From the IMG/VR virus record IMGVR_UViG_3300035158_000483, positions 1 to 52,585 of that record: DNA of 52,585 bases. One strand, written 5' to 3'. This stretch comes from a virus (Duplodnaviria; Caudoviricetes). The notes beneath the pieces were generated by a model that was not told the DNA's origin, made no database searches, and was given only the letters and a program-made list of their open reading frames with translations. Both the position numbers and the translations under genes were made by a program. Positions 2,567 through 32,284 of the stretch are shown here, in pieces; position 1 is the stretch's first letter, and every line of letters begins with the position of its first letter.

Positions 2567-5415
2567 ACGAACTCCCTCAGATCCGCCTTGGCCACCAGTT
2601 CGGCTCTCTTGAAGCTCATCTGTACGGAATGCACGATGTAGTTACTGTAGACCTCCGGGCCGCCGTCGTGAGGCGTGTAGCGCATCTCAAGCGCATCCTC
2701 CGGCTCCCAGTGCAGTTGAGCAGCCGACGTCGGCTGCCGTGATCCAGCCTGCGACACAGCATCACGCACCATCCTCTGAGCCTCTTTGTAGGCTTCCTCT
2801 TCTTCCAGGCTCGGACAGTGGTAGGCCACAAAGTTGAGGCCGTACCGCTGCGCAGCCTCGTGGTCGATGTAGTCGCAGATCTCGGCGCCGATGATCCGGA
2901 TGTGCGTCGGTATGCGGTCCGTCTGTGTAATCCCATCCTCGTAGATGGACAGGTGCGTGCCGCCGGCGGGGAACTCAGCATCGCCGGCGCGGTGATCCGT
3001 GAACGTGCCAAGCCAGTGCTCCCATCCACTCAACTCCTCCTCGTCGTACTTGAGGGAAGCGTAACCGAAGCGGAGCACTGGCATCGCCTCGCGGTTGCCG
3101 CCCCCATCGGTCACGTACCGGACTGTACTGATGAACTTGATCCTCCTGTCCTCAATCGCGCGTTTCAGGCCGGCCAGGGCGCTGTTTCGGGAGTCTAAGA
3201 TCGTACTGTCCTTGAGCGCCCATAGCTGTGGCTGCGTGACGCGAATGTTGTCGGGGTCGTGGTCGCCGGTGCGAATGCACACGTAGCCGGCCTTGAGCAG
3301 CGCATCCTCCCATCCGTCTGTGTCGTAGCCGTAGACCGGGCCGCAGGCCAAGGTCTGCGCCTGGGCACCGTTGATGTAGGCGGTCACAAAGCGTTCGTGA
3401 GCAACAACGCGCACCGTCTTGCCGAGCATTGATTCGTCCAGCACGGCTTCATCTACCTTGACCCAACCAGAGGTGTCCTGACTCGTCTGCCAGAGCTGCA
3501 CCTTGGGTGTACCGGATACGTTGATGTAGTTGAATGCCAGTGCGGAGACCCCGGATAGTGATGTCCAGTCGCTGACTGACTTGGAACTGACTCGGAAGAT
3601 CACCTGGAATGTGTCATCATCGCCCCACTGGTCCAGCTCCTGGTGTAGCTCGAACGTCAGGTAGAAGTTTTTGACGTACAGGTCCTCGCCATCCACCGTG
3701 GGTATCCAGACGGTATCCCACTCGTTAAACGTGAACTCAGGGACGGTATAGTCCACGGACAGGGCTGTGTCGAAGTCGAGCACGCCGGCCTTGGCCGCGA
3801 TGTCCTTGAGCACCCATTCGAGCGTCTTGTCGTGCTCGTCGTCATAGGCCCACACGCCCTTGAGGACGATCTGATCGTTGTTGTGCTGCCGGACGGTCGT
3901 GCCGCGAGGATGGTCTTCCCCCTTGTCGCTCATTCCGCTACCGCGACTAGACACTTTGAACCCAGGTATCAGGAAGAAGTAGGATGCTCCCACATTGCCA
4001 CCGGACGAGGGCGTCAACGCATCCCAGTCCTCTTCTTTGCAATGACCGATTGTGATCTTGTCTACCCCGCCATCTACTGTCCAGGCAGTAATCTCTTCGG
4101 TAACTCCCAATCCGCCGCCGTCCATCACGCACAAGAGCCAACCGTACCCATCACCATCATTGCTCCAGTTAGAACCAGCAGTCTCTCGGGCAGATTCAGT
4201 CTGGCTTTTGAGGACCTGTCCGGAGACACGCTCTGTCATCATTGAGTAGTGCGAACGCCAATCGCTTTGGGTGACCTGCTCAAGCTCCATCTCCTCCTCA
4301 CCCATATGCAAGGGGGCACCGCCTTCCTCGAACCATTCGTAAGTGTCCTTGTTGGAAAAGCCGGAAGCCTCACCGTGATCGTCCGGCTCCGAGTCGTAGC
4401 TGTCCCAAGGCCCTTCGGTTTCGTCCGGCCACTGCCCCAGGTCCCGCGCTAGATGCCTCTCAGCAGCTCGGACGTGCATCACCTTGGTTTCCGGGACGGA
4501 AATGTTGCAGATGATCCCCACCTTGCCCCGATCGAAGCTCCAACCGCTGTACGCTTCGTCACCGTGGCGCACCATCTTGTGGGGTTGTCCCCACATATGC
4601 TCCAGTCTCGCCAGCTCTGTTCGCGTGGGCGAACCTGAGCTTGCGAAGTGGAACACGGTGGCAATCAACTGGCGACCGCGACGCTTCAGCTTCACCTCGA
4701 ACAGCTCGCCGTGCTTGAGGTTTGAGGTGTCAGACAAAGCCACAGACGCCAGCTCATACCACTTGTTGTTGTCGGCCTTCCCGTATCCGCTGGCGTTCCA
4801 GTCCTCGGCGCCGCGATAGAGCAGGTACAGCTTGCCAGTCACCGCGTCCACCCAGGCCGCGATGACGTTGTACTGGTCGAAGCCACAGCCGACGACGCCG
4901 AAGCCGTGCCCCAGGCGCTGAGGGCCGTGTGTGGGGGAGAGATCGTAGCCCATCCCGAACATCGCCCCACCAGCATCGTTCTCCGGCATAAACCGCGCCT
5001 TGACCGCGAAGTCCTTAGCGTCGAAGGGCTGTGTGGCGAAGGCAATCAGCGGCTTGTTGTAGGTCGCGAAAATCTGCCGGTTGTCCTCTAGCTCCTCTAT
5101 CTCGGTCTGGTCGATCTGCGCGGTCTCACCGTCCTCGCCCTCTACGGTGATCTGCCCCGCACTGACTGAGTACAGCTTGTCCACGAGGCCCAGGTTGTCA
5201 TCGTAGTGCTTGATCTGCGACAGCCACTGCCAGTCCTGGGAGCTGGCCCAGTCCCTGAGCATCCTCCAGATGATGTCCCTGCTCTTGAAGGAGAACTCGC
5301 GTGCTCCTGGTGCGTAGCGTGTGGGGATGGAGTCTATGGCCTCTACGGAGATGATGTCCATCTGCCCGTTGTATCCAGCCTTGCGCCAGAGCCATAGGCC
5401 GGGGAAGATCGCCAT
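2563..5415 (-). CDS. Large minor tail/baseplate protein (950 aa), probably the C-terminal part of a gene split by one in-frame TAA
   Basis: Acidic, Trp/Gly-rich, beta-type composition; located downstream of the tape measure; in frame with 5485..7227. Confidence 0.65.
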   Translation of the reverse strand: MAIFPGLWLWRKAGYNGQMDIISVEAIDSIPTRYAPGAREFSFKSRDIIWRMLRDWASSQDWQWLSQIKHYDDNLGLVDKLYSVSAGQITVEGEDGETAQIDQTEIEELEDNRQIFATYNKPLIAFATQPFDAKDFAVKARFMPENDAGGAMFGMGYDLSPTHGPQRLGHGFGVVGCGFDQYNVIAAWVDAVTGKLYLLYRGAEDWNASGYGKADNNKWYELASVALSDTSNLKHGELFEVKLKRRGRQLIATVFHFASSGSPTRTELARLEHMWGQPHKMVRHGDEAYSGWSFDRGKVGIICNISVPETKVMHVRAAERHLARDLGQWPDETEGPWDSYDSEPDDHGEASGFSNKDTYEWFEEGGAPLHMGEEEMELEQVTQSDWRSHYSMMTERVSGQVLKSQTESARETAGSNWSNDGDGYGWLLCVMDGGGLGVTEEITAWTVDGGVDKITIGHCKEEDWDALTPSSGGNVGASYFFLIPGFKVSSRGSGMSDKGEDHPRGTTVRQHNNDQIVLKGVWAYDDEHDKTLEWVLKDIAAKAGVLDFDTALSVDYTVPEFTFNEWDTVWIPTVDGEDLYVKNFYLTFELHQELDQWGDDDTFQVIFRVSSKSVSDWTSLSGVSALAFNYINVSGTPKVQLWQTSQDTSGWVKVDEAVLDESMLGKTVRVVAHERFVTAYINGAQAQTLACGPVYGYDTDGWEDALLKAGYVCIRTGDHDPDNIRVTQPQLWALKDSTILDSRNSALAGLKRAIEDRRIKFISTVRYVTDGGGNREAMPVLRFGYASLKYDEEELSGWEHWLGTFTDHRAGDAEFPAGGTHLSIYEDGITQTDRIPTHIRIIGAEICDYIDHEAAQRYGLNFVAYHCPSLEEEEAYKEAQRMVRDAVSQAGSRQPTSAAQLHWEPEDALEMRYTPHDGGPEVYSNYIVHSVQMSFKRAELVAKADLREFV

Positions 5416-5484
5416 ATCTCCATCGGCGTCCAGGTAACGGCCCAGGTAGCCCGTGCTCTCAGTGACTGGGTAGTGCTTGCCGTG

Positions 5485-7227: not shown

Positions 7228-7631
7228 ACCGCTACGAGCTCCACTTCGGCCCAAAAGACGGCATTGGTGCCGGATAGCATCGGGGATCGGTTCTCAAACT
7301 TCAAGTCCCCAACGAATACCACGTTGTGTGTCTTGCTGTCGTCCGTCTCGGTCAGCGTGAGCACGTTGTTGGGCGGGTTTCCGAGACGGAAGATCGCCTC
7401 CAGATCGGCCTTGGTGCCATAGCTGCCGCCATCCGGATCGGTCTCGTAGACCTTCAGCAGATACTTGAAGCGGTCAAGGACCGGCGCCGATTGCACATCA
7501 ATATGGCCAGTGACCGTCACCCTCACCGTGCTCTTCTTCTCGATGATCGGTCTGTGGCCCTGAGACAGGACCCGGAAGTGCTTCGGGTCTTTGGTCGGTG
7601 CGTCTAGTGTGATGTAGCCGTTGATCGCCAT
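7224..7631 (-). CDS. Distal tail-like protein (135 aa)
   Basis: Short ORF immediately after the tape measure, translationally coupled on both sides; call is by synteny. Confidence 0.5.
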   Translation of the reverse strand: MAINGYITLDAPTKDPKHFRVLSQGHRPIIEKKSTVRVTVTGHIDVQSAPVLDRFKYLLKVYETDPDGGSYGTKADLEAIFRLGNPPNNVLTLTETDDSKTHNVVFVGDLKFENRSPMLSGTNAVFWAEVELVAV

Positions 7632-10600
7632 TAGTAGGGTAGCCCCCCTTCACGCGGTGGCAGACCACTTGGCGTGTTGTAGTTGTCCAGGATCGCCCCG
7701 GCCTCTTGCAGCAATTCCACGAGTCCGTCGATGATCTCGTTGTTGAAGTCGGTGGCCATCGTCGCGATAGAGCGTTGGATATTGGTGTAGCGTTCTTGGA
7801 GTTCGCGCATCGCTTCAGCGTGCGCCGCGGACAAACCAGCCTGCCGCTCTTGGAACTCCAACTGCTCCGCCTGGTGCTCGCGCTGCAGGGTCGTGATCTT
7901 CTGCTGATGCTCGTACTCCTCCTGATAGGCCGCCTTCCGCTCCTCTAGCTGCTTCATTCGCAGGGCGTGGGACTCCTGCGCCTGGGAGACACGTAGGGCG
8001 TGCGACTCCTTGGCGTGCTCCTCGCGCATATCGAACTGCTCCAGGCGCAGTTCGTGGAGTTTCTGGTTACGCTCCTTGAGCTCCTCCAGGTTCTCCTTCT
8101 TGCGCTCGAAGTCCTCTTCTTCCCACTCACGGCGTTGCTCCATTCGATCTTTCTCTTCCTGCAGATCCGTGGTCTCCCACTTGCGCCGTACGACGTCGCG
8201 CTCCCGTTGCCGCATCAGCCGCTCACGCTGGTAGCCAGTGGCCCGACGAATGTTCTCGTCGTAGTCCTCCATTCTCCAACCGAACTCGATGGCGGAGCGC
8301 CCGAATTGCTGGTGCCAGTCCTGCATCTTCCAGCCGTAGACCGTCGCGGCGCGCTCGCGCTGTCTTTCCAGATCCTCGAACTTGTCCTCCATATCCTCTT
8401 GTTGGAAGCCCCAACGGGCCATATACATTCGCCTGCTGAGGCCCGTGCTCTCCAGGGTGTGTCGCAAGCTCAGGCCAGCGCTTGCCATCGTGTGCGCCAG
8501 CGACATATTGGCTTGCTGTGCTGAGAAGTTGAAGGCTCCAGTGTAGGCCCTGCCGCTGATCGGGCTGATACCGCCCATCTGCTGCACGTAGTTGAATCGC
8601 CTGCTCACGTCTTGCAGGCCCCACAGACTGTCGGGGCCTGGAGCGGTGGGCGTACCGCCGCCCCAAAGATATCGTCTCTGAGCAGCGATACGCTCCATCT
8701 GCAGGCCGGCTTGGGCCTGGGAATAGCGCGTGTTCTCAGCCGTCATCGCATCCTGGAGGCCCCACAGCGTGTTCATCCCCCAACCGCCGACGTAGTTGCC
8801 GTTGGCTCGTGCCTGAGTCAGCCGCTGCTGCGTCGCCCGTAGGGCTGATCCCCAAGAGGAGATGCTCATACCGCCGAATCCGGGCGTCGGGGCAATCTGG
8901 CCGATCATCCCGATGGCGTTGTTGAGGGCTGTGCCGGAGACGACGGGCAAGCCGCCACTCGCAGCTGCCTCGAAGATCTCGGTACGCCCGACACCCAGGC
9001 GAGTGGCCGCACCCCACCGGCCGGCGATCTCCATACGGCGATTGACCTCAGCCATCTCCAAGCCCTTCATTTGCGAGTAGGCTTTCTGCCAGTCCGTGCC
9101 CAAGTAGCCCATCTGCCCCGCTTGCTGTGACCACCACCGAGGCCCTCGGCCAGTGATTGCGCCGGACTGGATCACGTCGCTTTCCAAGATTTCTCTTGGC
9201 GTCATCTGCCCCACAGCGCCAGGCGTCATCTCGTAATACTCACCGATCATCTCGGCTGCTCGCTCTGCTGTGACACCCTCGGGACGATAGGTCTTCGCAG
9301 CGTACTGGATAGAAGCTGCTCGTTCAGCGGCTGTCATACCTTGGAACCTGCCAGCCTTCAGACGCCTTCCCTTGTAGTACAGCCTGGTGCCTTCGGGGGT
9401 CAGACCGAGTACGTTGGGGTCCTGCATCATAGCGACACGCGGGTCATTCGGCGTCCCCCGGCCAACCTCTGTCGGTACGTCGGCCATTATCGCCCCACCG
9501 ATCCCGCCCATCCCGCCAGCCGTAGCACTCATATGCGTGAGGTTGTAGAACCACCCTCTGTCCTCTCTGGTGCCTGCGACCTGCGGTTGTCTGTAGTATT
9601 TCTCCGTGGCCACGCCGCGCTTGCCCTGAGCGAGATTGAGGGCCATCTGCTCCTGGTCGCCGCGCATACTCTTGATGTAGCTGTAGAGCCCATAGCCACC
9701 AGCGGCCAGCGCAACGGGGAGCCCAACGCCGGTGAAGGAGCCGCCGAGCATCGTGGCCAGCGTGCCAGCTACCGCCCCTGTGCCGAGGGCAGGGAGGCCA
9801 ACGCCAGCCGCCGCACCGCCTGTCTGAGTCGTTAGGAACTGTTGAATGTCACCGTAGGCGCGATAGGCAGCCCTGCCCATTGCAACCTGTCCAGCTTTCT
9901 TCTGAGCTTGCGCCTCCATCAGCCCCATTCCGATCCCGCTTACGGGAGCCGCGCTTACGGGCATCGTGGCCGCGGCCGCGCCCATCATCGTCTGTGCGCT
10001 CTCAGCCGCAACGGGGATATTGCCCATCGCGACGCCACCGGTCATTCCCCATAGCCGGCGCATCATCATCAGCCGCCAACCAGAGGTCAACTGCCCCATC
10101 ACCCTATCCACGCCCTTCATCGGCCCCTCGGCGCCGAAGAACGAGGTCTTGAACCACTCGCCAATGCCCCCGCTAGGAGCTGCCCCTTCCAGGCTACGCG
10201 CCCAGTCATCCTCGCTGGCCTGGATCATCTGCCGGTAGGCGTCCGAGCCTTTCAGCCGCATAGCCGCTGTCGCAAGGCCCACGTCGCCGGTCTCCTGCGC
10301 CTGCTCGAGGGCGCTTCCGGTCACGCTCTGGACCTCCCTGGCCAGGCGCTCTGTCCATTGCTTCTGCGCGTCGCTCAGCTCCTGGGTGTTCTTCACAGCA
10401 GGCCCGACCTGCTTGCCCCAGTCCTCCAGATGATCGGCAAGCGTGCGCATACGCTTGTTGAGAAGCTTCGTGTTGTCGACAACGCCATCCTCTGCTACGC
10501 CGACACCGGCTTCCTCGATCGCAGGTATCATCTGTGCAAGCGACGTCTGCCCGATACCGTGGACGCTGGTGACACCCTTCTTGGTAGCGAATCCAGACGC

Positions 10601-13600
10601 GCCGGGCAGTCTCGCAATCTCCCGCCTGCGCTTGACGATGCGCCCGGCCAGCTTAGAGCCGACTCCCTTGACCTGCTGTAGTTGCTCTGCGGTGGCCGTG
10701 TTCAGGAAGCCGAATCCTGTTGTGGTCAATTCGGGTTCAGGTGGAACGACGCTCTCGAAACGCTGTTGCATCAGATCGGCCTGCGCCGTCGCGGCCATCA
10801 TCGGGATGGCCGAGCCGAGCTCGCCCTCCATATAGGTCTTGGCCGTGGTCACGTACTGTTGCATCTCCTGGTTGTTCGATTCGCCAAACCGTGTTGCGCC
10901 CTTCTGTGCGTGACCGAGCCAGGTGGCCATCTGGTTGGCCATCTGCCGGTAACCTGGCGTGACCTCGCCTTTGTCCTGGGTGATGGCTTGAGAGGCTTCT
11001 AGGAACTGAGGCCCGTACATCTCCAAGCCCTCTACGGCGGTCTTGAACTTGCTCTTCGACACGCCGAAGGCCCACTCCATCGTGTCCTTTAGGTCCTGAC
11101 CGAGCTTGGCCATCCCTTGTGGCACTGAAGGCCCTTCGTCTGGAGGGCTGCCAGGGGGGCCACCTGGAGGAGGGGGTGGGGCGGCCGGTGGAGCACCGGT
11201 CGTCCTTCTTGGCGGTCCTTGGCTCCCTGCGCCTCCAGCAATCGGCTCTGAGGGAAGTGGAGCTTCGCCGCTCTCCATAAACGCCTGCACGCTGTCATAG
11301 CCCTTCTGCTTGGCCATCCGAGACAGCATCACGGTCCGCTGCATTGCCTGCTCACGCGGATCGCCCTGAGACCAGCCGCCGATGCTCCGCGACGTAACCT
11401 CGCCACCGGTGCCTGTGCCGCCCAGGCTGACGCTGGATCCGGACATCATCCTCTCGACGTCCTCTTCGGGCATACCCATCTGACCGAGTATCTCACCAAA
11501 CAACCCGGGTGCTGCGTCCATCCCGGCCTGTACGCGAGCGGCCAGGGGGTCTGCGTCAGCACGCTTGGACAGTGAGGATCGCCAAGCCTTCGCCCTGGAC
11601 CTGATCGTGTTGAAGAGCTTGCGTTGGTACGGGTCAAGGTTGGAGACTATTTCGTTGACGACGTCTTCCTGCCCGCGACCGAGGGCCATCGCTGTGGCCG
11701 TGAGACCGATCGGGGTCTCTGTCTCCCACTCGCCGGTCAACCGAGCGCGTTGACGCGCCAGCTTGGCACGCTCGAAGTCATCCTCTGCACTGCGCCAACG
11801 CTTGACCAGCTCCTCAGCCTCTCCCCAGTTCCGTCTCGGAAACCCTAGCTTTGCGACCAACTTGGGGCTCAAGTGCTTGGCACTCATCAGCGCCGGCATA
11901 AACGCCTCCTGGATGCCGGCAGGACCAGCGGAGACGTTCAAGTTTGAGAAGTCTCCCTGGCCACCTGGGCCGCCCAATAGCTTGTCGAAGTAGGACGCGC
12001 CGCCCTTGTGCAAGGAGAGCGAGTTCAGCATCCCGACGACCTTCTGCAGCTCAGGCGGCAACTCCTTCGGCGTCTGTGTCTGGCCGTGAATCACTCCGAA
12101 GAACTTCTCGGCCTCTTCTCCGAGGCCCATCGAGCGAGCTACGTGCTCCACGTCCTCAAGGGAGGCGTACGTCGGGCCGATGTACTGTCGGAGTTTGTTC
12201 GTCCAGGCCATCGCAGACCCAACTGTCTCGGCGTCGAGCTCGTGAAGATTGCGGGGGTCCATCGCGGCCCTCAGCTCCTCCAGGTTGCGGAACTTGTGTC
12301 CCCTCGACAGATCCTGGCGCTGCATCTCTTCGACGGCGGTCTGCGCTTGCTTTGCGACGAAGCCTTCTGTTGCCCAGGGGATACCAGGCTCCCCACCAGG
12401 CGTCTGCTGGCCAGGGAGCTTGAGCCGGCCTTCTGGATCGACCTCGCCCATCATCAGGTTCCAGAACAGGTCCTCGTCAAAGTCGCGCCCTAGGGCCTCG
12501 GCTAGCTTGGGGTTGATGACCAGACCAGTACCCTCAGATAGCTGCATCCCGCGCTCTTTGGCGACTTCGGGGTGGATGACGTTGAACATACGGCTCAGGG
12601 GCCAGTCACCAGGCATCGGCTGTCCCATCACGATGGAACCGAGCTTCATCCCTTGTTTCCAACGATGCTCGAACTTGTACTCCCTGGTGCCCTCGATGTG
12701 CCGCTGCGATGGGTCCATCCCGTAGGCTCGCATCACGCGCTCAACCGGTGCTGTGATCTCCGTAGAGGCCAACGCAGAGCTGGAAAGCGCGGGACCGCCG
12801 AACGCTTTGGGGATTGGCGTGCCCAGGGCGCGTCTGAGGAACTTGCGGCTTTCAGCGAGCTTGGACTGTGCGCCGAGCGCCCCCTGTAGGGCTTCCCTAC
12901 GGGCCTTAGAGCCGACTTTCTCGGATAGGCCGAGGAGAGCCTTGCCATAGAGCTGCCCGTACGCCGTGGCCTCTTCTGTGGACAGGGAGCCGGACGCCAT
13001 AAAGCGCAGAGCGTGCGCCGGCGCGGCCAGTACGCCTTCCTCAGTAAGCAGCGGCTTCTGTCCCCACTTGGTCTGTGCCGCCTGTTGCATCACCGCACGC
13101 GCAAGCACGGCCTCTGTAGGCTCCTCACCCTCTTCACCAAGGGACATAGCGCGACCAGCCGCGACAGCTTCCTGGACCGCCTTGGGGTCAGGGGCGATAG
13201 CGTTCTTGGGATACCCGTGCGGGCCTCCGGAGATCGACGCTTTGATGATACCGCTGTACGCCTGCTTGAGGTCGTAGCCTTGCTTGCGAATCTCGCTGAA
13301 GTATTCAGCTACGCCAGGATGCTCAGCGAAGCGTTCCTTGGCAACGCGCTCCAGGCGCTGGACCTCGCGGAAGGGTAGGTGGGCAGGCTCTCGGAGCGCC
13401 CAACCGCGCCGGTACATCTGGAAGAACTTCCCCTTGAGGAAGCCCATCGGCTTCTTGCTCTCCAACCGGTAGTAGCCCTCTCCGATCTCAGTGCGGTCGA
13501 ACGTGTCCTCTGGAAACTGCCAGAGCTGAGACTTGTGGACACTGGGGATCGTGACCGGCTTCTCCGTGTAGAGGCCGCCCTCGCTCTCGGGACGCAGCTT

Positions 13601-15451
13601 CTCCTCGACGAAGGCGTTGTAGAGAGGCTCGCTGACATCTTTCCACGTCTTCTGTTTCATCCCCTCCATCGTGAGATCGTCGTACCCGCGCCGGCGCAGC
13701 GTGGACAGCATCTCGTTAGGGTGTGCCATCCAGTAGGAGTAGGCCAACTGTGTCGGCTCCTTGATCTGCGTCATCCCATAGCCCTTCTCGCCGTGGAAGG
13801 CCGAGGGGCTGCCGACGCCGCTCATAAACTTGCTCCAGAACGTCTTTGAGGACAGTCGGGCCGTCTCAGGGGATGCTCCTTGCTCCATCACAGCACGGAG
13901 CACGCGCCGATCCTCATACTCACCCTTGCGCTCGTTGTAGTAGCGAGCGTTGACGACGCTGTAGTCCTTGAGCTTCGCCCAGTCCCAGTTGCGGCCAAGG
14001 CCGATTTTCAACGGAGCCGCGCCCTCGAAAAGCTCAAGCTTCCCACTGTCACCGGTCCACTCCGTCCCGCGCTTGACGACCTTGGGTTCCATCCCTTCGG
14101 GGAGGGGGATATCGTAGGTGTGGGCGCGCCGTACGGAGCCGATCCAGCCCTGCGGCTGCATCTCTATACCCTCTGGCAGCCACTCGCCCAGGGAGATCAT
14201 CTGGTTGGTGATGACGCCACGGTTCCGGCGCATTGCTGTGGAGCCGAGGCGCAGCGGGGACTGTGCGGTGATGTTCTCTCCCGTCTCGGAGTAGTAGTCG
14301 AACATCTTGTAGACGCCCTGGAGCTGCGTGCGCTTGGCGATCTTGATCAGCCTCGAACGGTCCGAAGGGTCGTAGGGGGAGAGAATACTCTCGCCCTTGT
14401 GAGGTCCTGCCCACAGATCGGTGTAGACGCGGCTCGGCCACAAGCGGGATGCGCCTTGGCGCGTTACGTATCCTTCCGGCCAGTCCTCGGGGTCCATCCC
14501 CTCGACTGAGCCCTCGATGCCCAGGTCAGGTCCTGTCAGGCCGGTGCGGTAGCGGATCTGCTTCGCTGCTGGCAGGTACTTCCAGTGACTAGGCCCCTTC
14601 ATCGTGGCCACCACGCCGAGGCCGCCCTCTACGGGCCGGTAGTCAACCGGGGGCATTCCGCCGAACTCAGCGCCCAGGTTCTCCTTGAGGTAGGATGCGG
14701 CCTGGCCGGCGTTGGCACCTGCGAGATTAGCGCCGGCGAGGCGCTGCGAAAGCTCCTGTCTGGTGAGGCCCCATCCCATAAACGCACCGAGCATCTGCTC
14801 GTAGCCCTGTGTCCCAGGCTGTGCGGAAGGGTCGTAGGGGACTTTGCGGTGGACGTGAGCGCCTACTCTAGCGTTAGGGTCTGCAGACCGGACATTCTGC
14901 CGGAAACCGCTCAGGATACCGCTCTGCCGCTCGGCCTCTGCCTGGACCTGCTCAGGCGTCAGACCTCTGACACGTATGGAGCTAGGGGGTACAACCGATC
15001 TGTTGCGCTTGAGGATACGTCCAGCTCGGGACAGATTACCGCGTTGCAGGAAAGCCGTCGGATCTTCGGTCTGATAGCTCTCCGTGGGCGTAGCGGCCGG
15101 TTGCTGCAACCTGGTGGACTGGCCTCTACCGCTGTACACGCCGACGTCCAGAAACGTGGCCCACCGATCGGCGGCAGTCTTCTGTCGCTCGTGCTCGCGC
15201 ATCAGGTCCCGCTCGCGCAAGTCGAGCTCCATATCCAGTTCAGTTTCCGAGACGGAAGACGATGGGGCTGTGGCACGATCTAACGCGGCCTCGAAGGCCG
15301 TGACGCTCTCGCCCTCTTCTGGCGCGAAGTGGTGTCGAGCGCCTTGCGTGCGATCGTACTCTATTCCCTCTGGATCGTCGGGGTCATCGCCTTGGAAATG
15401 ACGGCCCCTGGCGTTCCAGAGCCAGTCGTCTTTTGAGTAGTCTCTCGTCAT
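7631..15451 (-). CDS. Tape-measure protein (2606 aa) with a putative N-terminal two-barrel RNA polymerase and an internal HhH domain
   Basis: Position after tail tube and chaperones; Ala/Gly-rich hydrophobic stretch and long C-terminal E/R/Q coiled coil. Contains GLVINPKLAEALGRDFDED (aa ~976-994), a Pro-rich linker and LNTATAEQLQQVKGVGSKLAGRIV...VHGIG. Confidence 0.75.
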   Translation of the reverse strand: MTRDYSKDDWLWNARGRHFQGDDPDDPEGIEYDRTQGARHHFAPEEGESVTAFEAALDRATAPSSSVSETELDMELDLRERDLMREHERQKTAADRWATFLDVGVYSGRGQSTRLQQPAATPTESYQTEDPTAFLQRGNLSRAGRILKRNRSVVPPSSIRVRGLTPEQVQAEAERQSGILSGFRQNVRSADPNARVGAHVHRKVPYDPSAQPGTQGYEQMLGAFMGWGLTRQELSQRLAGANLAGANAGQAASYLKENLGAEFGGMPPVDYRPVEGGLGVVATMKGPSHWKYLPAAKQIRYRTGLTGPDLGIEGSVEGMDPEDWPEGYVTRQGASRLWPSRVYTDLWAGPHKGESILSPYDPSDRSRLIKIAKRTQLQGVYKMFDYYSETGENITAQSPLRLGSTAMRRNRGVITNQMISLGEWLPEGIEMQPQGWIGSVRRAHTYDIPLPEGMEPKVVKRGTEWTGDSGKLELFEGAAPLKIGLGRNWDWAKLKDYSVVNARYYNERKGEYEDRRVLRAVMEQGASPETARLSSKTFWSKFMSGVGSPSAFHGEKGYGMTQIKEPTQLAYSYWMAHPNEMLSTLRRRGYDDLTMEGMKQKTWKDVSEPLYNAFVEEKLRPESEGGLYTEKPVTIPSVHKSQLWQFPEDTFDRTEIGEGYYRLESKKPMGFLKGKFFQMYRRGWALREPAHLPFREVQRLERVAKERFAEHPGVAEYFSEIRKQGYDLKQAYSGIIKASISGGPHGYPKNAIAPDPKAVQEAVAAGRAMSLGEEGEEPTEAVLARAVMQQAAQTKWGQKPLLTEEGVLAAPAHALRFMASGSLSTEEATAYGQLYGKALLGLSEKVGSKARREALQGALGAQSKLAESRKFLRRALGTPIPKAFGGPALSSSALASTEITAPVERVMRAYGMDPSQRHIEGTREYKFEHRWKQGMKLGSIVMGQPMPGDWPLSRMFNVIHPEVAKERGMQLSEGTGLVINPKLAEALGRDFDEDLFWNLMMGEVDPEGRLKLPGQQTPGGEPGIPWATEGFVAKQAQTAVEEMQRQDLSRGHKFRNLEELRAAMDPRNLHELDAETVGSAMAWTNKLRQYIGPTYASLEDVEHVARSMGLGEEAEKFFGVIHGQTQTPKELPPELQKVVGMLNSLSLHKGGASYFDKLLGGPGGQGDFSNLNVSAGPAGIQEAFMPALMSAKHLSPKLVAKLGFPRRNWGEAEELVKRWRSAEDDFERAKLARQRARLTGEWETETPIGLTATAMALGRGQEDVVNEIVSNLDPYQRKLFNTIRSRAKAWRSSLSKRADADPLAARVQAGMDAAPGLFGEILGQMGMPEEDVERMMSGSSVSLGGTGTGGEVTSRSIGGWSQGDPREQAMQRTVMLSRMAKQKGYDSVQAFMESGEAPLPSEPIAGGAGSQGPPRRTTGAPPAAPPPPPGGPPGSPPDEGPSVPQGMAKLGQDLKDTMEWAFGVSKSKFKTAVEGLEMYGPQFLEASQAITQDKGEVTPGYRQMANQMATWLGHAQKGATRFGESNNQEMQQYVTTAKTYMEGELGSAIPMMAATAQADLMQQRFESVVPPEPELTTTGFGFLNTATAEQLQQVKGVGSKLAGRIVKRRREIARLPGASGFATKKGVTSVHGIGQTSLAQMIPAIEEAGVGVAEDGVVDNTKLLNKRMRTLADHLEDWGKQVGPAVKNTQELSDAQKQWTERLAREVQSVTGSALEQAQETGDVGLATAAMRLKGSDAYRQMIQASEDDWARSLEGAAPSGGIGEWFKTSFFGAEGPMKGVDRVMGQLTSGWRLMMMRRLWGMTGGVAMGNIPVAAESAQTMMGAAAATMPVSAAPVSGIGMGLMEAQAQKKAGQVAMGRAAYRAYGDIQQFLTTQTGGAAAGVGLPALGTGAVAGTLATMLGGSFTGVGLPVALAAGGYGLYSYIKSMRGDQEQMALNLAQGKRGVATEKYYRQPQVAGTREDRGWFYNLTHMSATAGGMGGIGGAIMADVPTEVGRGTPNDPRVAMMQDPNVLGLTPEGTRLYYKGRRLKAGRFQGMTAAERAASIQYAAKTYRPEGVTAERAAEMIGEYYEMTPGAVGQMTPREILESDVIQSGAITGRGPRWWSQQAGQMGYLGTDWQKAYSQMKGLEMAEVNRRMEIAGRWGAATRLGVGRTEIFEAAASGGLPVVSGTALNNAIGMIGQIAPTPGFGGMSISSWGSALRATQQRLTQARANGNYVGGWGMNTLWGLQDAMTAENTRYSQAQAGLQMERIAAQRRYLWGGGTPTAPGPDSLWGLQDVSRRFNYVQQMGGISPISGRAYTGAFNFSAQQANMSLAHTMASAGLSLRHTLESTGLSRRMYMARWGFQQEDMEDKFEDLERQRERAATVYGWKMQDWHQQFGRSAIEFGWRMEDYDENIRRATGYQRERLMRQRERDVVRRKWETTDLQEEKDRMEQRREWEEEDFERKKENLEELKERNQKLHELRLEQFDMREEHAKESHALRVSQAQESHALRMKQLEERKAAYQEEYEHQQKITTLQREHQAEQLEFQERQAGLSAAHAEAMRELQERYTNIQRSIATMATDFNNEIIDGLVELLQEAGAILDNYNTPSGLPPREGGLPY

Positions 15452-15744
15452 TCTCGGACCTCGGCAAGCTGATTAGTTGCCTGCAAACTCTCGAATCTGT
15501 TGGCTCCCTCTTCCGCCGCCCACACGTCCTGCATATAACCTGCTGGCTGATCAATCCAGCCACCTTCTCGTGGAAGCCCCCACTTCTCGCACTTCTTGAG
15601 CTCCCGATACGCCGGCGGCACGTCCGGCAGGTTGGGTTCTACGTAGATCGTCCTGTGCTGCTGTGCGTCGAAATGCTCCTGAATGGCCGTAAGGTAGTTG
15701 AAAACCTCGTCCGCAATCGCTGCTCTACGGCCTTCAGGCGTCAC
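15448..15744 (-). CDS. Tail assembly chaperone, second (gpT-like) ORF
   Basis: Lies between the gpG-like ORF and the tape measure. WGLPREGGWIDQP is typical of pre-tape-measure ORFs. It sits in the +1 frame relative to 15770..16174. Confidence 0.6.
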   Translation of the reverse strand: MTPEGRRAAIADEVFNYLTAIQEHFDAQQHRTIYVEPNLPDVPPAYRELKKCEKWGLPREGGWIDQPAGYMQDVWAAEEGANRFESLQATNQLAEVRE

Positions 15745-15769: not shown

Positions 15770-16174
15770 CTAATAACCCCGAAACGGATACTGCCAGTCC
15801 GGATTGACTTCGCGGACTAGCATCACCCATTCCTTGATCAGTGAGTCGGGCGGGTTGATCTCTTGAATGCGACTCTTGAACTCCTCGAGGGGCACGTCGT
15901 CCTTCTCGAACAACGGCTGGCCCCCAACGGTCAGGTTCGTCCCTGCGAACGTCAGGGCGATCTCCTCCAACCAGAGCGTGCGGTTGTTCAGTGTGGTATC
16001 AATGCGCAGCGTCCCATCCGGCTCGTACGCCTCGGAGCGTGCTTTGAGGAGCTCGGCTCGGTGGGCGTTCTCGACAAATCCGGCCGGCTCGATGCGTACC
16101 CAGGTGTCACCGTCTTCGTCCCACTGTTCCAGGTACTTGGTCTGAGGCTCTACCGGCTGAATATCTCTAGGCAT
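15770..16174 (-). CDS. Tail assembly chaperone (gpG-like, 134 aa)
   Basis: Synteny tail tube - G - T - tape measure; AAGGAG ribosome-binding site. Confidence 0.6.
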   Translation of the reverse strand: MPRDIQPVEPQTKYLEQWDEDGDTWVRIEPAGFVENAHRAELLKARSEAYEPDGTLRIDTTLNNRTLWLEEIALTFAGTNLTVGGQPLFEKDDVPLEEFKSRIQEINPPDSLIKEWVMLVREVNPDWQYPFRGY

Positions 16175-16231: not shown

Positions 16232-17299
16232 CTACGGGGTCGGCCAGGCGTATGATTCTTGATCGTTGACGACCGTGATCTGGAACGGGTCCCCGCTCGC
16301 TGGCTCCTTCAGCACGCCGACCATCGGACAGTAGAGGATGCTGTTGCCCTGCAGTCGGAGCTGCCCGTCTACGCTCCAGTCAACTTCGGGGGCCGTGATC
16401 TCAATGCTGTAAGGCGTGCTCGTACCCGAGATGTTGTTGGGCGATTCCAGCTTCGCCGCGACGTTGGTGGAGTACACCGAAGGCGTCCACTCCGTGCCGT
16501 CAACGGCGCCGGTGTAGACCTGTTGCCACAGATCGGGATCGGCCCACTTGTAGATGAATCGGAACGCGAGATCGCGCTCGATGGCGACGAGATCGTCGGG
16601 GTGGTAGCTCCCAATGACCATCTCGTCCTGTAGCCGCGCAGCACTCAGCTGATTCATCAGCGTGATCTCAACCGACCTCGCTTCCAGCGCTTCAGCCGAA
16701 AAGTCAGGCAGCTTGAAGTAGCCGCTGTTACCGGTCGGGATGCTCTGCGTGTCCTCGAAGGTGTTCTCGTAGGTCCACCCGGATGGGTTTTCCTCGAACG
16801 AAGGCTCGCGGCCCAACACGCCGACCTGACACGTCAGCGGTGCCATAGCCGCCATCGAAAAGACAGCTTGGGCCACCTTGCAGTCCTGCAGAATCTCCCC
16901 AATCGAGTCGCTGGCCGTAGCCCCAGGGATGAACTTGTGCATCGTCAGCCAGGGCAGGTAGGCGTGATCCGTGGACTTAGGCCGGAAGATATGCGTGTGA
17001 CAGCCAGCTTCCGGCGTGTCGCTGGCGGTCGATACGTCGCCGGTCATCGCGTACAGGAGCCAGCCGAAGACGTTCTTGATCCTGGGCTGGATCGTCGCTG
17101 TGCCGCCCACAAGCGAAGCGGTCTTGCGCTGACCGACATTGAACACGCTCCCACCAACCTCCGGTGCCCACCTCTCGGCTTGCTCAATCGCACCCAGGTT
17201 GATGTCGAGCGTCTTGTGTCGATAGAACGTGGTGGCCAGGGACTTCTTTGCAGTCTGTCCCCCATAGGCCAGCACGCCGTTTCTGGAAGAAACACTCAT
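16232..17299 (-). CDS. Major tail tube protein (355 aa)
   Basis: Synteny, strong AAAGGAGAG ribosome-binding site, tube-like features (HTHIFRP, final ITVVNDQESY) and a downstream GC hairpin at ~16194-16217. Confidence 0.75.
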   Translation of the reverse strand: MSVSSRNGVLAYGGQTAKKSLATTFYRHKTLDINLGAIEQAERWAPEVGGSVFNVGQRKTASLVGGTATIQPRIKNVFGWLLYAMTGDVSTASDTPEAGCHTHIFRPKSTDHAYLPWLTMHKFIPGATASDSIGEILQDCKVAQAVFSMAAMAPLTCQVGVLGREPSFEENPSGWTYENTFEDTQSIPTGNSGYFKLPDFSAEALEARSVEITLMNQLSAARLQDEMVIGSYHPDDLVAIERDLAFRFIYKWADPDLWQQVYTGAVDGTEWTPSVYSTNVAAKLESPNNISGTSTPYSIEITAPEVDWSVDGQLRLQGNSILYCPMVGVLKEPASGDPFQITVVNDQESYAWPTP

Positions 17300-17312: not shown

Positions 17313-18377
17313 TTAGGTTAAGGCGCAGTAGGCGTCTAGCCATTTGCGCCAGTGTTTTTCAGTTGCTCGGTGTTCGATAACCCACTCGTGACCCTGCTTT
17401 TGAAGACGTCGACGCAAGCGCCAGTCCTCGATCAACTTGGCGATCTGTGCGTACCACTCGTCGCTGTCGTAGTGGTCCCTGACGAAAAGGGCGTTGTGAC
17501 GGTTGTTGCACACACGGCGATACACCTTGCAGTTCGTGACGACAGGCACCGCACCTCCGAAGCTTCCGTCACGGAGAGGCCGCTTTGAGGCCATATACTC
17601 CAAAGCCTTGATGCCAGACTTGCTCTTGTTGAAGCGATCATCCGGCTCCAAGGGGGCTAGGCCGATGTCGATCTGGCGGATCAAGGCGGGGTAGCTCTGG
17701 AAAGGCACTTTGGCACCGATCGTCAGGCGGGGCAGCTCCTTGAGATAGTCCGGCACGAAGCCGCCTATGAAGAAGCGCACGTTGGGATGGTCCTCTGCGA
17801 TCTTCCGCAGGGCAGGTCCGACTGGTCGCCAGTCGTCTGCGTGAGTATCTGTGCCGACAATCCCTACGGTGAGCGCGTCGTCCACACGGTGCTCGTCTGG
17901 AGCGAAGGGCTCCCACATCTCCGGTACAATCGTGTTGGGCAGGACAAAGACCTGCTCGTTGTACCGCTCCATCACATCGCGCAGGTAAGGCGTAGAGGCG
18001 GTGCCAGCCGTGCAACGCTCCAGCACGCTGGTCGCTATCCCCTCGCCGGTGACCTCTCTGTGCGAGTTGGTATAGTCGTCATCCCACTCACACACGACAG
18101 CCTTGCCGGCTTTCTGGAGCGTCGCGATGAACGTCTCGGCCTCGCGCTCGTGGCCAAGAGGGGCGATAACCCTGGCCAGCACGAAAACGTCATACGTGGC
18201 TGGGTCTAGGTGCCCCATCTGCGTGGCCCTGAATGCCCGATCAATCGGCATCCAATCAGCCTGATAGCCGTGCTCGCTCAGCTTCCGATACGGAAAGATG
18301 ATGCGATAGGCATCGCAGGCCGTTGGCCCGTTCTTGCGCTCGCCAGCGAACAGCCCCAGCACTCTAGGCTTCGTCAC
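17313..18377 (-). CDS. Glycosyltransferase, GT-B fold/GT4-like (354 aa)
   Basis: Motifs ACDAYRIIFP, VCEWDDD, ASTPYL, VLPNTI and DIGLAPLEPDDRFNKSKSGIKALEY. Confidence 0.85.
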   Translation of the reverse strand: MTKPRVLGLFAGERKNGPTACDAYRIIFPYRKLSEHGYQADWMPIDRAFRATQMGHLDPATYDVFVLARVIAPLGHEREAETFIATLQKAGKAVVCEWDDDYTNSHREVTGEGIATSVLERCTAGTASTPYLRDVMERYNEQVFVLPNTIVPEMWEPFAPDEHRVDDALTVGIVGTDTHADDWRPVGPALRKIAEDHPNVRFFIGGFVPDYLKELPRLTIGAKVPFQSYPALIRQIDIGLAPLEPDDRFNKSKSGIKALEYMASKRPLRDGSFGGAVPVVTNCKVYRRVCNNRHNALFVRDHYDSDEWYAQIAKLIEDWRLRRRLQKQGHEWVIEHRATEKHWRKWLDAYCALT

Positions 18378-18933
18378 AGGTCAGTACCTCCCACTTGATC
18401 CAGCCTTGCCAAATCCAGCTACTAGGCGGTCCGCCACCCTCGACCATATACCCCTCGACAGGCCGCACGATCCCTGCCACACTCTCGCCGAATGAATCGC
18501 GGCAGGTGAGGGCGGTAGGGGACTGGAAGATCGCGTCCTCGACGCGTCTCCGGAACAAGTTGGCGTGCTCACGCGCCTCTTGTCTGGTCAGGTCCAGCGT
18601 TGTGAAGAAGCAACGGAGCTGCGCTGAGCCTCGACGCCACCAATACTGACTGCCGCCGATCTCTGCTGCCCCACCGATGTAGGGCGCGCCTCGCTGCGCC
18701 TCAGTGGTGTGCTGGCGCTCGTCGGCCAGTTCGTGAGGCCATTGCTCGCGCTTGGGCGGGAAGTTGGGGTGCAGCGTGACAGAGTTGATCGGGTCCTGCG
18801 GATCGGACTGCAAGCGGCCAGCACGTATGAGGCCAGCTCGCGAGAGGTCGTCCTCTGGCACGCTGTCCCTGCACTGAGACGTGATATCCGCGACCAGCGC
18901 GTCGATCACCACATCTACGATATCGGTAGTCAT
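18364..18933 (-). CDS. Putative tail terminator/head-tail joining protein (189 aa)
   Basis: Synteny between the adaptor and the tail tube. Confidence 0.45.
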   Translation of the reverse strand: MTTDIVDVVIDALVADITSQCRDSVPEDDLSRAGLIRAGRLQSDPQDPINSVTLHPNFPPKREQWPHELADERQHTTEAQRGAPYIGGAAEIGGSQYWWRRGSAQLRCFFTTLDLTRQEAREHANLFRRRVEDAIFQSPTALTCRDSFGESVAGIVRPVEGYMVEGGGPPSSWIWQGWIKWEVLTCDEA

Positions 18934-19574
18934 TATCTAGTCGGTCTCCAGGTCTGAATCTCTGCGTTCTGCGTGTGCGTATGGACGATCTGGATGTAAC
19001 GTTCCTGGAATGCCTCGGCCATACGCGCCAACGGATTGTGTTCGGGGTTGCCGCTGTCCCATTGCTGGTCCCATTGATCGATAGAGGCCGAGCCAGCAGA
19101 CTTACCGCTCAGGGCCGCGGCCGCTGCGTAGTAAGCCAGCGCCTCCTCTGCCCATCGCGGTGCGTTCGCTGGCGTACCCTCGCTCAATCGGTCGTAGTAG
19201 GCGTCGTAGTGGACTGTGAAGGGGTTCTCGGGTGCTGTGTTGAAGACCAGCAATCCCCCGCGTCTCCGATACGCAAGCTTCGCGTTGGACGCAGGCAGCC
19301 CTACACCAGGCTTTGCGTCGTACTCCTCGATGAAGCCAACGCTGTCCACCTTCACCAGGTCGATGCTGTATACGTTGTCGGGCAGCGGGAAGGTGGCCGT
19401 GCTCCCATCCACCTCATTCGTGTAGTCTACGTCCGAGACAGCGGGGCAGTACGCCGTGAAATCGTTGAGCGCCCAGTTGATGTAGAGCGTCAATTCATCG
19501 TCGGAATACTGGCTCTCGCCGGCGTTGGCCAGTATGGTGCGTGTGGCCTGCTGTAGAGCTGCTAGTGTGATCAC
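18933..19574 (-). CDS. Head-tail adaptor protein (213 aa)
   Basis: Follows the capsid gene. The pattern MITLAALQQATRTIL...YSDDELTLYINWAL...ALAYYAAAAAL resembles phage adaptor proteins. Confidence 0.6.
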   Translation of the reverse strand: MITLAALQQATRTILANAGESQYSDDELTLYINWALNDFTAYCPAVSDVDYTNEVDGSTATFPLPDNVYSIDLVKVDSVGFIEEYDAKPGVGLPASNAKLAYRRRGGLLVFNTAPENPFTVHYDAYYDRLSEGTPANAPRWAEEALAYYAAAAALSGKSAGSASIDQWDQQWDSGNPEHNPLARMAEAFQERYIQIVHTHTQNAEIQTWRPTR

Positions 19575-19643: not shown

Positions 19644-20692
19644 CTAGCCACCGGTCGAAGCGCGGCCCTTGAAGCGGACGTTGCCAGCGGAGTAGACAAC
19701 CTCGAAGCGATCCGGGAAGAAAGGCTGGTACTTGATGTACGCATCCCAGGAGAACCGCTTCATCGCCATCGCGTCATCGACCGTGGGCGGGGCGTGTAGG
19801 GTAGGGGGCTGAGTGACGCCAGCCACAATGCCCTTCGCGCCACCCAAGCAGACCGTCGCGTGGACATGCCGGCCGAGCGTGACGTAACCATAGATGCCGG
19901 TGTCAACCTCGGTGTCATAGTCCTTCTGCAGCGGCCGGTCGAAGCTCAAGCGGTCGTCGTCCGTGTTCACGGAGACCAGACGCCGGTTGGTCAGCGAGCC
20001 TTCGGTGTAATCCACACCGTCGCTCACGCCGTAGTCGCTGGTCTTGGTCTTGTGAATCGTGACGATCTCGCCCTCGTGGCCGGAGAACGCGCTCGCCTGC
20101 CCAGTGTCGAGCTGGACGTAGCGGGTGTTGGCCGGCTGACCAGGCGTAATCGTGTCGTCCACCTTCGCAGCAGCGCCCGTACCTGCGGGGGCCGAGGAGA
20201 CGATATCGGCTGTCTGCGTCACAGGACCGCAGTTGTAGAGCGTGCAGCGCGTGGTCTGGATGAACCGCGTGGCCTTGAGGCGACCAACCTCGATATCCAT
20301 CATCAGCTTGCCGAAGTCGCCAGCGTACTCAGCCGCTTCCTTGAACTCCCCACCGGCCTCGTTGCGGATGTCGTAGAGGACACCAGGGGACGTGATTGCG
20401 ATCATATCCCCGGTCGGGCCGGTTGGGTTGTTGGCGAACGGAGCCTCGCGATAGCTCATACCGAGCCAAATCTGATCCAACAGGCTCGGTTCGAAGAGGT
20501 CACCGTTGCCGAGATCGTTGAAACCATCGTTGGAGGCGTCCCCGCAGTAGAGCTCGTAGGGACCCTCGAGGAAGGCGTTGCGAGCCAGGATGTCCATATG
20601 ATCGGCAATGGACCGGGCCATCAGGTCCCGAATGATGGGAATCAGCCCCGCACGACCGCTGTTGCGCCGCCAGTAGTTAACATAATCATCAT
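19644..20692 (-). CDS. Major capsid protein, exon 2 (N4-gp56-like family; spliced product 452 aa)
   Basis: Capsid-like motifs LMARSIADHMDILARN, ITSPGVLYDIR, IEVGRLKATRFIQT and DDAMAMKRFSW. Joins exon 1 in frame after intron removal. Confidence 0.85.
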
Positions 20693-21011
20693 CGCTTGTG
20701 TTACTACGCACTCAGTGCGCGGCTAGGTCATTTCTGCCTAGCTCTCACGCTCTCACGTGAGGCCGGACTATATCTTCATCCAATCAGGATGCCGGGTACT
20801 CTAAGTCGGTTCTCCGATAGTCTCTGAACCTTCCCCTGGTCTAGGGGCTCGGCTGCTGATTGCCCAATCCCTGAGATTCTCAAGCCTTCGCGCTCACCGT
20901 TTCCAGTCATCGCTGTGGCTCTCAAGGCTCTAAGGGGGTTCCAGCAATTCACCCGATTGCCCTCTTACGCTAGGGCCATCGCACCTTGCGGTGCGAGCAA
21001 GCTCGAAATGA
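20693..21011 (-). ncRNA. Group I intron, 319 nt, no homing endonuclease ORF
   Basis: Minus strand shows P GAATTGCTGGAA, Q GGCAATCAGCAG, R GTTCAGAGACTA and S AAGATATAGTCC. P1 is CAAGU/GCUUG with a U.G wobble at the 5' splice site, the terminal G is at 20693, and P10 pairs UCAU with AUGA. Confidence 0.93.
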
Positions 21012-22214: not shown

Positions 22215-22266
22215 TCGAACAGCGGGGACTCGAACCCCACAGCGGCCCCCGACGGGCTACTGCTCG
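22215..22266 (-). ncRNA. tRNA-like element lacking an anticodon arm
   Basis: 7-bp acceptor-type stem CGAGCAG/CTGTTCG plus discriminator A, TA at positions 8-9, a GCCC/GGGC D-like stem, and a T arm TGGGG-TTCGAGT-CCCCG. Confidence 0.55.
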
Positions 22267-23867: not shown

Positions 23868-23878
23868 CGTTAGAATGC

Positions 23879-23918
23879 AAAAAGCCCCAGTCCGTGGAAG
23901 CACCACGGTCTGAGGCTC
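23879..23918 (-). terminator. Intrinsic terminator/attenuator-like hairpin just before the portal gene
   Basis: AGCCTCAG-ACCGTGG-TGCTT-CCACGG-A-CTGGGGCT followed by TTTT. Confidence 0.5.
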
Positions 23919-24208: not shown

Positions 24209-24464
24209 CTCTGCCCCCCGACCTTCTCCAGTCATAGCCGTCGCTGATCTCCAAGACGCTATGCGCTGAAGCGCGTGTGAAAAGTGCTTTGAATTTCTTG
24301 GCCAAGAAATGCCTTCCGCTTTTGCAGAGCCAGTCGCGTAGGGTAGGGCGGCGGAGTTCGACGCCGTTGACCAGCAAGTAGACACCGTCCTGCGTCTCAA
24401 GCCACTCGACATCTTCCGTCACGGAAAGCTCCTCCTCGGTGTAACTGGCTATTTCACGCATCAT
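24192..24464 (-). CDS. Hypothetical protein (90 aa)
   Basis: ATGA-coupled to the TerL stop. Confidence 0.55.
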   Translation of the reverse strand: MMREIASYTEEELSVTEDVEWLETQDGVYLLVNGVELRRPTLRDWLCKSGRHFLAKKFKALFTRASAHSVLEISDGYDWRRSGGRDGWRR

Positions 24465-32205: not shown

Positions 32206-32284
32206 ACTGTACGAAAGTACAAGCACGACTTGACAAACGTTCAGTAGATTGTATAATGGAGCGCACACTGAACGAACGTTCAAA
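32206..32284 (+). promoter_or_regulatory. Consensus sigma70 promoter with three operators
   Basis: TTGACA (32230-32235), 16 nt, TATAAT (32252-32257); operators start at 32206, 32228 and 32267. Confidence 0.8.

Follow-up and report, generated by a model that had tools for sequence, protein, structure and literature searches.

What is carried in the first half of the giant tail protein encoded by the virus record IMG/VR IMGVR_UViG_3300035158_000483 (Duplodnaviria; Caudoviricetes)? The window, that is, the whole stretch analysed here, comprises positions 1-52,585 of that record, one strand, and its fusion gene (7631-15451, minus strand) is one open reading frame (ORF) without an internal stop, encoding a protein of 2606 residues, P0001. 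An earlier note, made from the sequence, had placed a two-barrel RNA polymerase (RNAP) at the N-terminus of this protein, which it took to be a tape-measure protein, and family conservation together with the predicted fold now supports that proposal. In our judgement P0001 is probably a tape-measure protein with an N-terminal, ~1300-residue, single-chain two-barrel RNAP of the cell type, a virion polymerase like gp96 of the Thermus phage P23-45. This reading is based on the gene position, the family, three Asp residues that are invariant in it and a predicted fold resembling that of RNAPs; catalysis, packaging, ejection and the choice of genes to be transcribed are what we infer.

An exhaustive HMMER search with residues 150-1340 against 1.84 billion cluster representatives (E ≤ 0.001) returned 28 homologues besides the query, at 27-35% identity, 20 of them at E ≤ 1e-30. 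Because 20 of the 28 are 1800-3004 residues long, family members as a rule have the module fused to a long C-terminal part, and full-length family alignments have conserved columns in the C-terminal part too. The RNAP-like module also occurs alone, since three members of one cluster, found on 18-19 kb contigs, are 1145 residues long and end at the equivalent of residue ~1290.

The sole DxDxD of the 2606-residue protein is DFDED, residues 990-994, encoded at nt 12470-12484 as the earlier note had given. With this composition, a protein of 2606 residues should contain 0.14 DxDxD and 0.004 DFDxD by chance, so the motif by itself proves little; it is conservation that lifts it above chance. We aligned 24 sequences (the query and the 23 homologues reaching the site; median pairwise identity 25%) and counted conservation over the 825 columns occupied in at least 20 of the 24. 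P0019, P0025, P0026, P0027 and P0029, which have no DxDxD and whose matched ranges stop short of the site, were left out. Thirteen of the 825 columns are invariant (G353, K373, G412, G428, G477, K564, P945, D990, D992, D994, G1092, Q1126 and G1326), and all three Asp residues are thus present in 24/24 sequences. At this divergence the invariant triad, read from the alignment, indicates selection on a metal site. That DFDED was described as non-canonical is of no concern: among the family members the fourth position varies freely (A 12, G 5, E 2, K 2, S 2, M 1), so DFDED is not aberrant among them. Further upstream, K536 and K541 are conserved in 17/20 and 19/20 sequences, respectively, and R532 is not conserved. 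When all frames of at least 100 residues were read from stop to stop, just one other DxDxD was seen in the record, a DADGD within 5416-5484 (minus strand); it precedes the first start codon of the 950-residue ORF at 2563-5415 and is probably untranslated.

Two AlphaFold2 models were calculated. The first covered residues 150-1340 with a 29-row family alignment and gave a mean predicted local distance difference test score (pLDDT) of 81.9 and a predicted template modelling score (pTM) of 0.80, with 636 residues at or above 90. High pLDDT extends from about residue 205 to 1295, in agreement with the claim that the first ~1300 residues are globular. In the model the DFDED loop connects a short helix with a strand, within a strand-rich domain. 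When the model was compared with the PDB by Foldseek, 44 of the 50 matches listed were largest RNAP subunits (bacterial β′; Pol I, II and III; African swine fever virus) and two were second-largest subunits (Pol I A135). For the whole module the lowest E-value was 1.2e-4, and T. thermophilus 9v4m_D is an example of the best matches. The second model, residues 320-715 alone (pLDDT 87.2, pTM 0.84), had cyanobacterial RNAP β subunits in the first two ranks (8urw_C, E 4.7e-3; 9dvs_C, E 6.6e-3; 436-450 columns, TM-score 0.30-0.31) and Pol I A135 in the fourth (6h67_B, E 0.06, TM-score 0.34), with 415-450 columns across the β and A135 matches, which span the whole of this model. Identity in the Foldseek alignments to multisubunit RNAPs is 9-12%. 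Since the β-like matches are N-terminal and the β′-like matches, with the Asp loop, come after them, the domain order is that of single-chain two-barrel RNAPs, in which the β-like part precedes the β′-like part (PMC10770324). The Foldseek matches and the order of secondary-structure elements suggest putative double-psi β-barrels (DPBBs), more weakly for the second, β-like one, and a corresponding active-site geometry would be predicted. The earlier note had named two outcomes as fatal to its proposal, Asp residues that differ among homologues and a predicted structure with no double-psi barrel; as it turns out, the triad is intact throughout the alignment and the PDB matches are almost only RNAP subunits, which predicts the barrels. 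A PolD-like DNA polymerase was considered and rejected, as no PolD chain is among the Foldseek matches listed for either model.

The viral structure library BFVD gave the lowest E-values. The top match, A0A075BUT7, is an uncharacterised protein of Microcystis phage MaMV-DC (E 2.3e-7, probability 1.00, 778 columns) and the second, A0A8S5SD80, a 'minor tail protein' of Siphoviridae sp. ctnpt50 (E 5.7e-6, probability 1.00, 1148 columns), with giant-virus and phage RNAP subunits and large proteins of crAss-like phages further down. No sequence similarity between MaMV-DC and the P0001 family was found by a tblastn-type search or by HHalign. The MaMV-DC genome (KF356199) has two large frames on its minus strand, 49227-54317 (1697 residues, with a DADGD) and 66655-77343 (3563 residues, with a DFDGD). 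Neither resembles the P0001 family by HHalign; the two frames may be unrecognised two-barrel RNAPs of Ma-LMM01-type cyanophages.

The features of P0001 and their places in the window are as follows.

11567-14839, minus strand: globular RNAP-like module, residues ~205-1295 (pLDDT mostly >85; homologue alignments; Foldseek matches to RNAP large subunits)

13325-14494, minus strand: N-terminal domain and putative β-like barrel (DPBB-B), residues 320-709 (separate model and Foldseek; K373, K564, K536, K541)

Residues ~710-875: long helical connector between the barrels (AlphaFold2 model)

12452-12820, minus strand: putative β′-like barrel (DPBB-A) with P945, residues 878-1000 (strand and helix pattern of the model, β′/Rpb1 Foldseek matches, conservation)

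12470-12484, minus strand: DFDED, candidate Mg-binding loop (D990, D992, D994), residues 990-994 (invariance, HHalign)

12131-12232, minus strand: 34-residue helix, residues 1074-1107 (DSSP on the model; invariant G1092, conserved N/A1096 and E1099)

11129-11263, minus strand: Pro-rich linker, residues 1397-1441, 17 Pro in 45 residues

10523-10705, minus strand: helix-hairpin-helix (HhH) DNA-binding domain, residues 1583-1643 (Pfam HHH_3, ComEA-like; E 2.4e-8, above the cut-off)

9692-9988, minus strand: Gly/Ala-rich hydrophobic segments, residues 1822-1920 (Kyte-Doolittle windows >1.2, found nowhere else in the protein)

7772-8254, minus strand: highly charged C-terminal stretch, residues ~2400-2560 (charged residues and Gln amount to 60 per 100; runs of Pro or Gly are absent)

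By its position in the model, the helix at residues 1074-1107 is a candidate bridge helix; it is followed by a conserved G-x-x-Q-x-P stretch, whose Q1126 is found in 23/23 sequences. The stand-alone homologues stop near residue 1290, and this end of the module fits the drop in pLDDT (to below 50 beyond residue ~1294) and the Pro-rich segment further on, which is likely a hinge joining the RNAP module to the tape-measure part. Among PDB sequences the HhH domain also weakly matches ComE operon protein 1; ComEA serves as a receptor in DNA uptake. In their composition the Gly/Ala-rich segments resemble the membrane part of tape-measure proteins, and the charged C-terminal stretch is probably a coiled coil.

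Relatives were scanned for accessory domains, 11 with Pfam and three with PHROGs. P0005 carries HhH motifs (Pfam), P0007 matches PHROG 1706, and P0006 (P0037; 9950-17905 of the contig L005 described below) has an RNase_T (DEDD) 3'-5' exonuclease domain at residues 63-219 (E 3.4e-19), ahead of the RNAP-like module. The remaining eight Pfam-scanned relatives gave no domain. Accessory domains that are predicted to act on nucleic acids are more in keeping with a polymerase than with a tail domain of purely structural function.

The similarity of P0001 to known polymerases that can be seen in the sequence is concentrated in the catalytic loop. HHalign produced one alignment of the family to gp96 (residues 1-1250), pairing residues 976-1002 with gp96 765-791, which contain DFDGD, over 27 columns (E 0.07, probability 0.8%), and one to E. 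coli β′, pairing residues 971-996 with 441-466, which contain NADFDGD (E 0.13, probability <1%); neither E-value is significant. By Smith-Waterman comparison, residues 860-1005 align with β′ 330-475 at the DFDED loop (z 3.5, reached by 5/500 shuffles) and with gp96 641-795 at the same loop (z 3.4, 4/500 shuffles). This agrees with the published remark that RNAP families have little in common beyond the DxDxD region (PMC10770324). The earlier note had aligned four motifs by eye with cellular RNAP cores. The peptides are where it had put them (residues 532-543, 869-902, 940-945 and 973-994) and the E. coli β′ strings that it quoted are real, but only the third motif, the loop just described, is borne out; motifs 1, 2 and 4 are not significant alone. 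In motif 2, P945 is invariant in 24/24 sequences and the residues preceding it vary. The pairing of motif 4 with β KMAGRHGNKGV is not supported, since the region scores z 1.8 against RNAP β (35/500 shuffles) and the aligner pairs a different pentapeptide. As a lead only, the language-model neighbours of P0001 that have a Pfam name are clusters carrying PF05183, an RNA-dependent RNA polymerase (RdRP) family, with scores of 0.77-0.86.

The tape-measure assignment was approached from the gene order. The record has no end repeats, its completeness is 63% (CheckV) and the G+C of the genome is 56-63%. The structural operon occupies its left half, on the minus strand throughout:

24461-26365, minus strand: large terminase

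22257-23906, minus strand: portal

19644-20711, minus strand: major head protein

18933-19574, minus strand: adaptor

17313-18377, minus strand: glycosyltransferase-like gene (PHROG 7162, E 2.8e-23)

16232-17299, minus strand: tail tube gene (Pfam Phage_tube_2, E 1.7e-7; PHROG 290, E 2.5e-14)

15770-16174 and 15448-15744, minus strand: two small ORFs of 134 and 98 residues, directly upstream of the fusion gene

7631-15451, minus strand: fusion gene P0001

After P0001 come ORFs of 135, 589, 950 and >855 residues, the large ones in tail-tip position. With the order tube gene, two small ORFs, P0001, large ORFs, P0001 occupies the tape-measure position of long-tailed phages. Neither the small ORFs nor the four ORFs after P0001 have family matches (Pfam and PHROGs for the former), and the position of the former suggests tail-assembly chaperones. 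No curated tape-measure family matched P0001 (PHROGs, E ≤ 0.1; Pfam, E ≤ 1) or its homologues (11 scanned with Pfam, three with PHROGs); gene position, size and composition suggest the assignment. The same order recurs around the homologue P0006, in a 105,743-bp contig (L005) binned to an uncultured Anaerolineales genome, where the gene comes after homologues of the head, adaptor and tube genes and then two small ORFs (blastp). The L005 tube gene is 32% identical to that of the record (E 4e-45), and ten neighbours in L005 had no PHROGs matches. IMG/VR scans with the query, P0004 and P0002 found no relatives' loci. The glycosyltransferase-like gene, flanked within the head-tail module by the adaptor region on one side and the tube gene on the other, also has a homologue in L005 (40% identity).

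The closest known arrangement is that of gp96, a protein of 5002 residues in which a two-barrel RNAP module is fused in the tape-measure protein (PMC10770324), so that the precedent cited in the earlier note is correct. Both are giant proteins in the tape-measure position, with the two-barrel module in the first ~1100-1300 residues, a membrane and tape-measure part after it, and a DFDxD loop (gp96 779-783, P0001 990-994). The differences are also clear. P0001 is half as long (2606 versus 5002 residues), Pfam finds no metallopeptidase domain in it, and an HhH domain is present; its connector (residues ~710-875) is long and helical, whereas that of gp96 is described as short and disordered (PMC10770324). 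There is no sequence homology to gp96 beyond the loop by HHalign, by phmmer and profile searches of the PDB or by tblastn; the genome of the record is not related to Oshimavirus, and a search of the record, 63% complete, gave no second RNAP of the gp64 kind. Compared with multisubunit RNAPs, whose β and β′ subunits are the best structural matches of the two halves and whose NADFDGD takes the DxDxD, P0001 is a single chain with the β-like part before the β′-like part and has no other subunits. The crAss-like phi14:2 gp66 and the QDE-1-type RdRPs (PF05183) are likewise single-chain two-barrel polymerases, in very large virion proteins, and the BFVD matches to large crAss-like proteins are weak (E 0.04-0.4); those proteins are not tape-measure proteins, because the phages have short tails. 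With somewhat less assurance than for P0001 itself, we also think that there is a second family of tape-measure-fused two-barrel RNAPs, in sequence unrelated to the first, in uncultured long-tailed phages, with P0001 as the first member seen so far, and that its module is mobile and recruits nucleic-acid domains. In the literature searched, a tape-measure-fused two-barrel RNAP is described only in PMC10770324 and its preprint, whose supplementary census of viral two-barrel RNAPs might list the P0001 family.

If P0001 is a virion polymerase, its chain would begin with the β-like part (residues ~320-709), continue through the helical connector to a β′-like barrel with the Mg-binding DxDxD, and add a long bridge-like helix. 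The Pro-rich hinge would then link the RNAP module to the HhH domain, which would be followed by the hydrophobic segments and C-terminal coiled coil of a conventional tape-measure part. As gp96 does, P0001 would be built into the tail tube, would leave the virion before the DNA and would form or join a channel across the envelope, and its polymerase end would transcribe the first-entering DNA and may thereby help to draw the genome in.

Several results weigh against this reading. No RNAP was found with the whole protein by Pfam, PHROGs, phmmer or a family-profile hmmsearch against the PDB, and Pfam RNA_pol_Rpb1_2 and Rpb2_6 are absent from the six frames of the record at E ≤ 10, while 14/14 control genomes matched. 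HHalign probabilities are below 1% to gp96, gp64 (0.2%), β′ and β. A blastn/tblastn search of 50,697 GenBank phage records gave no match and a word-indexed protein search with residues 1-1330 returned only the query itself. The Foldseek E-values are modest and the TM-scores low, 0.08-0.12 for the whole model and 0.30-0.34 for the N-terminal part, the value of ~0.1 arising because only the cores align. The numerous RNAP matches are redundant PDB entries and not independent tests. Residues 320-715 have no PDB match at E ≤ 0.001, and small ribosomal β-barrel proteins make up the rest of that list; gp96, gp64, QDE-1 (2J7N) and phi14:2 gp66 (6VR4) are absent among the 50 PDB matches listed. On the side of the genome, no second (non-virion) RNAP was found, as no other translated ORF of the 52,585-bp record, 63% complete, has a DxDxD. 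Finally, a σ70-like promoter with a shared operator occurs at 14 sites, compared with 0.45 expected, before operons on both strands:

24159, 26516, 29058, 30333, 32230, 35422, 42624, 50213, 52006 and others: promoter/operator sites

The promoter consists of TTGACA, a spacer of 16-17 nt and TATAAT, with 12/12 matches at 32230, and the spacer holds the palindrome CTGAACGTTCAG. From their sequence these sites look like host-type promoters under one dimeric repressor.

With strong σ70-like promoters at many operons, a phage RNAP is not obviously needed. Host-type promoters and the lack of a second RNAP mean that the enzyme may have a narrow role: it may transcribe no more than a few pre-early genes, which possibly belong to the missing part of the genome, or help to pull the DNA in. 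Taken further, the same evidence leads to an active two-barrel polymerase whose main job is not pre-early transcription at all, the host RNAP transcribing the genes while the phage enzyme works as a genome-pulling motor or makes primers or non-coding RNA. The promoters with their common palindromic operator before many operons on both strands, the missing partner RNAP and the ComEA-like HhH DNA-binding domain just after the polymerase module all speak for it. We nevertheless regard it as unlikely, because the record is ~63% complete, so that the missing part may contain pre-early genes and the promoters belonging to them, and because in the single case studied, P23-45, pre-early genes are indeed transcribed by the fused RNAP (PMC10770324). 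The same source reports that some relatives of P23-45 possess one RNAP without the other (PMC10770324).

A domain derived from an RNAP but no longer catalytic, with a structural or ejection role in the tail, for example as a plug or a piece of a channel, is in our view slightly less probable again. Most active-site residues of cellular RNAPs are indeed not kept, the N and R of the β′ NRAP sequence varying in the family, and sequence similarity to any RNAP family is undetectable. Active gp96 is equally devoid of detectable RNAP similarity outside its loop (PMC10770324), though, and three Asp residues among just 13 invariant columns of 825 at 25% median identity indicate selection on a metal site; K373 and K564 of the β-like part are invariant as well. 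That P0001 has no RNAP at all, its N-terminal half being a globular tail domain of a new kind, its DxDxD a chance occurrence or a metal site of another sort, and the Foldseek matches spurious, would suit the blank sequence searches, the best PDB E-value of 1e-4 with its low TM-scores and the 0.14 motifs expected by chance, but is very improbable given that both halves return the same superfamily in the correct order from two libraries (PDB and BFVD), that with β′ and with gp96 alike the catalytic loop is where the best local alignment of the sequences is found, and that the language-model neighbours carry PF05183.

In the literature searched, fusion of a cell-type RNAP to a tape-measure protein was previously confined to one group of Thermus phages (PMC10770324). 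If P0001 is a polymerase of this kind, phages have repeatedly placed a cell-type RNAP at the head-proximal end of their tape measure, which is then not an oddity of Thermus phages, the arrangement being either general or convergent, and a deeply divergent branch is added for reconstructing the evolution of two-barrel RNAPs. It would also mean that polymerases visible only to structure prediction can be concealed in giant tail proteins, in N-terminal halves labelled 'hypothetical'. The HhH domain here and the DEDD exonuclease in a relative would then suggest a machine built into the tail for DNA entry and first transcription. With its core of ~1100 residues, the module offers a smaller construct for studying how a folded polymerase passes through the tail tube.

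Two further observations concern the record as a whole. A second palindrome, TTCCG-N3-CGGAA (5-bp stem, 3-nt loop), occurs in 26 copies, compared with 0.05 expected and a maximum of two in 100 shuffles, for example at 7379, 11829, 15245, 19589, 24414, 34239/34263, 35337/35358, 40846 and 52299. Copies are found both within genes (twice in the P0001 gene) and between them, some paired or beside GC-rich hairpins, whereas the related locus L005 has none. The palindrome might act as an operator, as part of a terminator or as a promoter for the phage polymerase, a role for which the promoter/operator repeat was considered as well. On the plus strand, 36706-40824 encodes a 1372-residue fusion of an N6 DNA methyltransferase (DUF6094/N6_Mtase), a superfamily-2 helicase (ResIII, Helicase_C) and DUF6573, a domain set that we take to be typical of large anti-restriction-type proteins of phages and plasmids.

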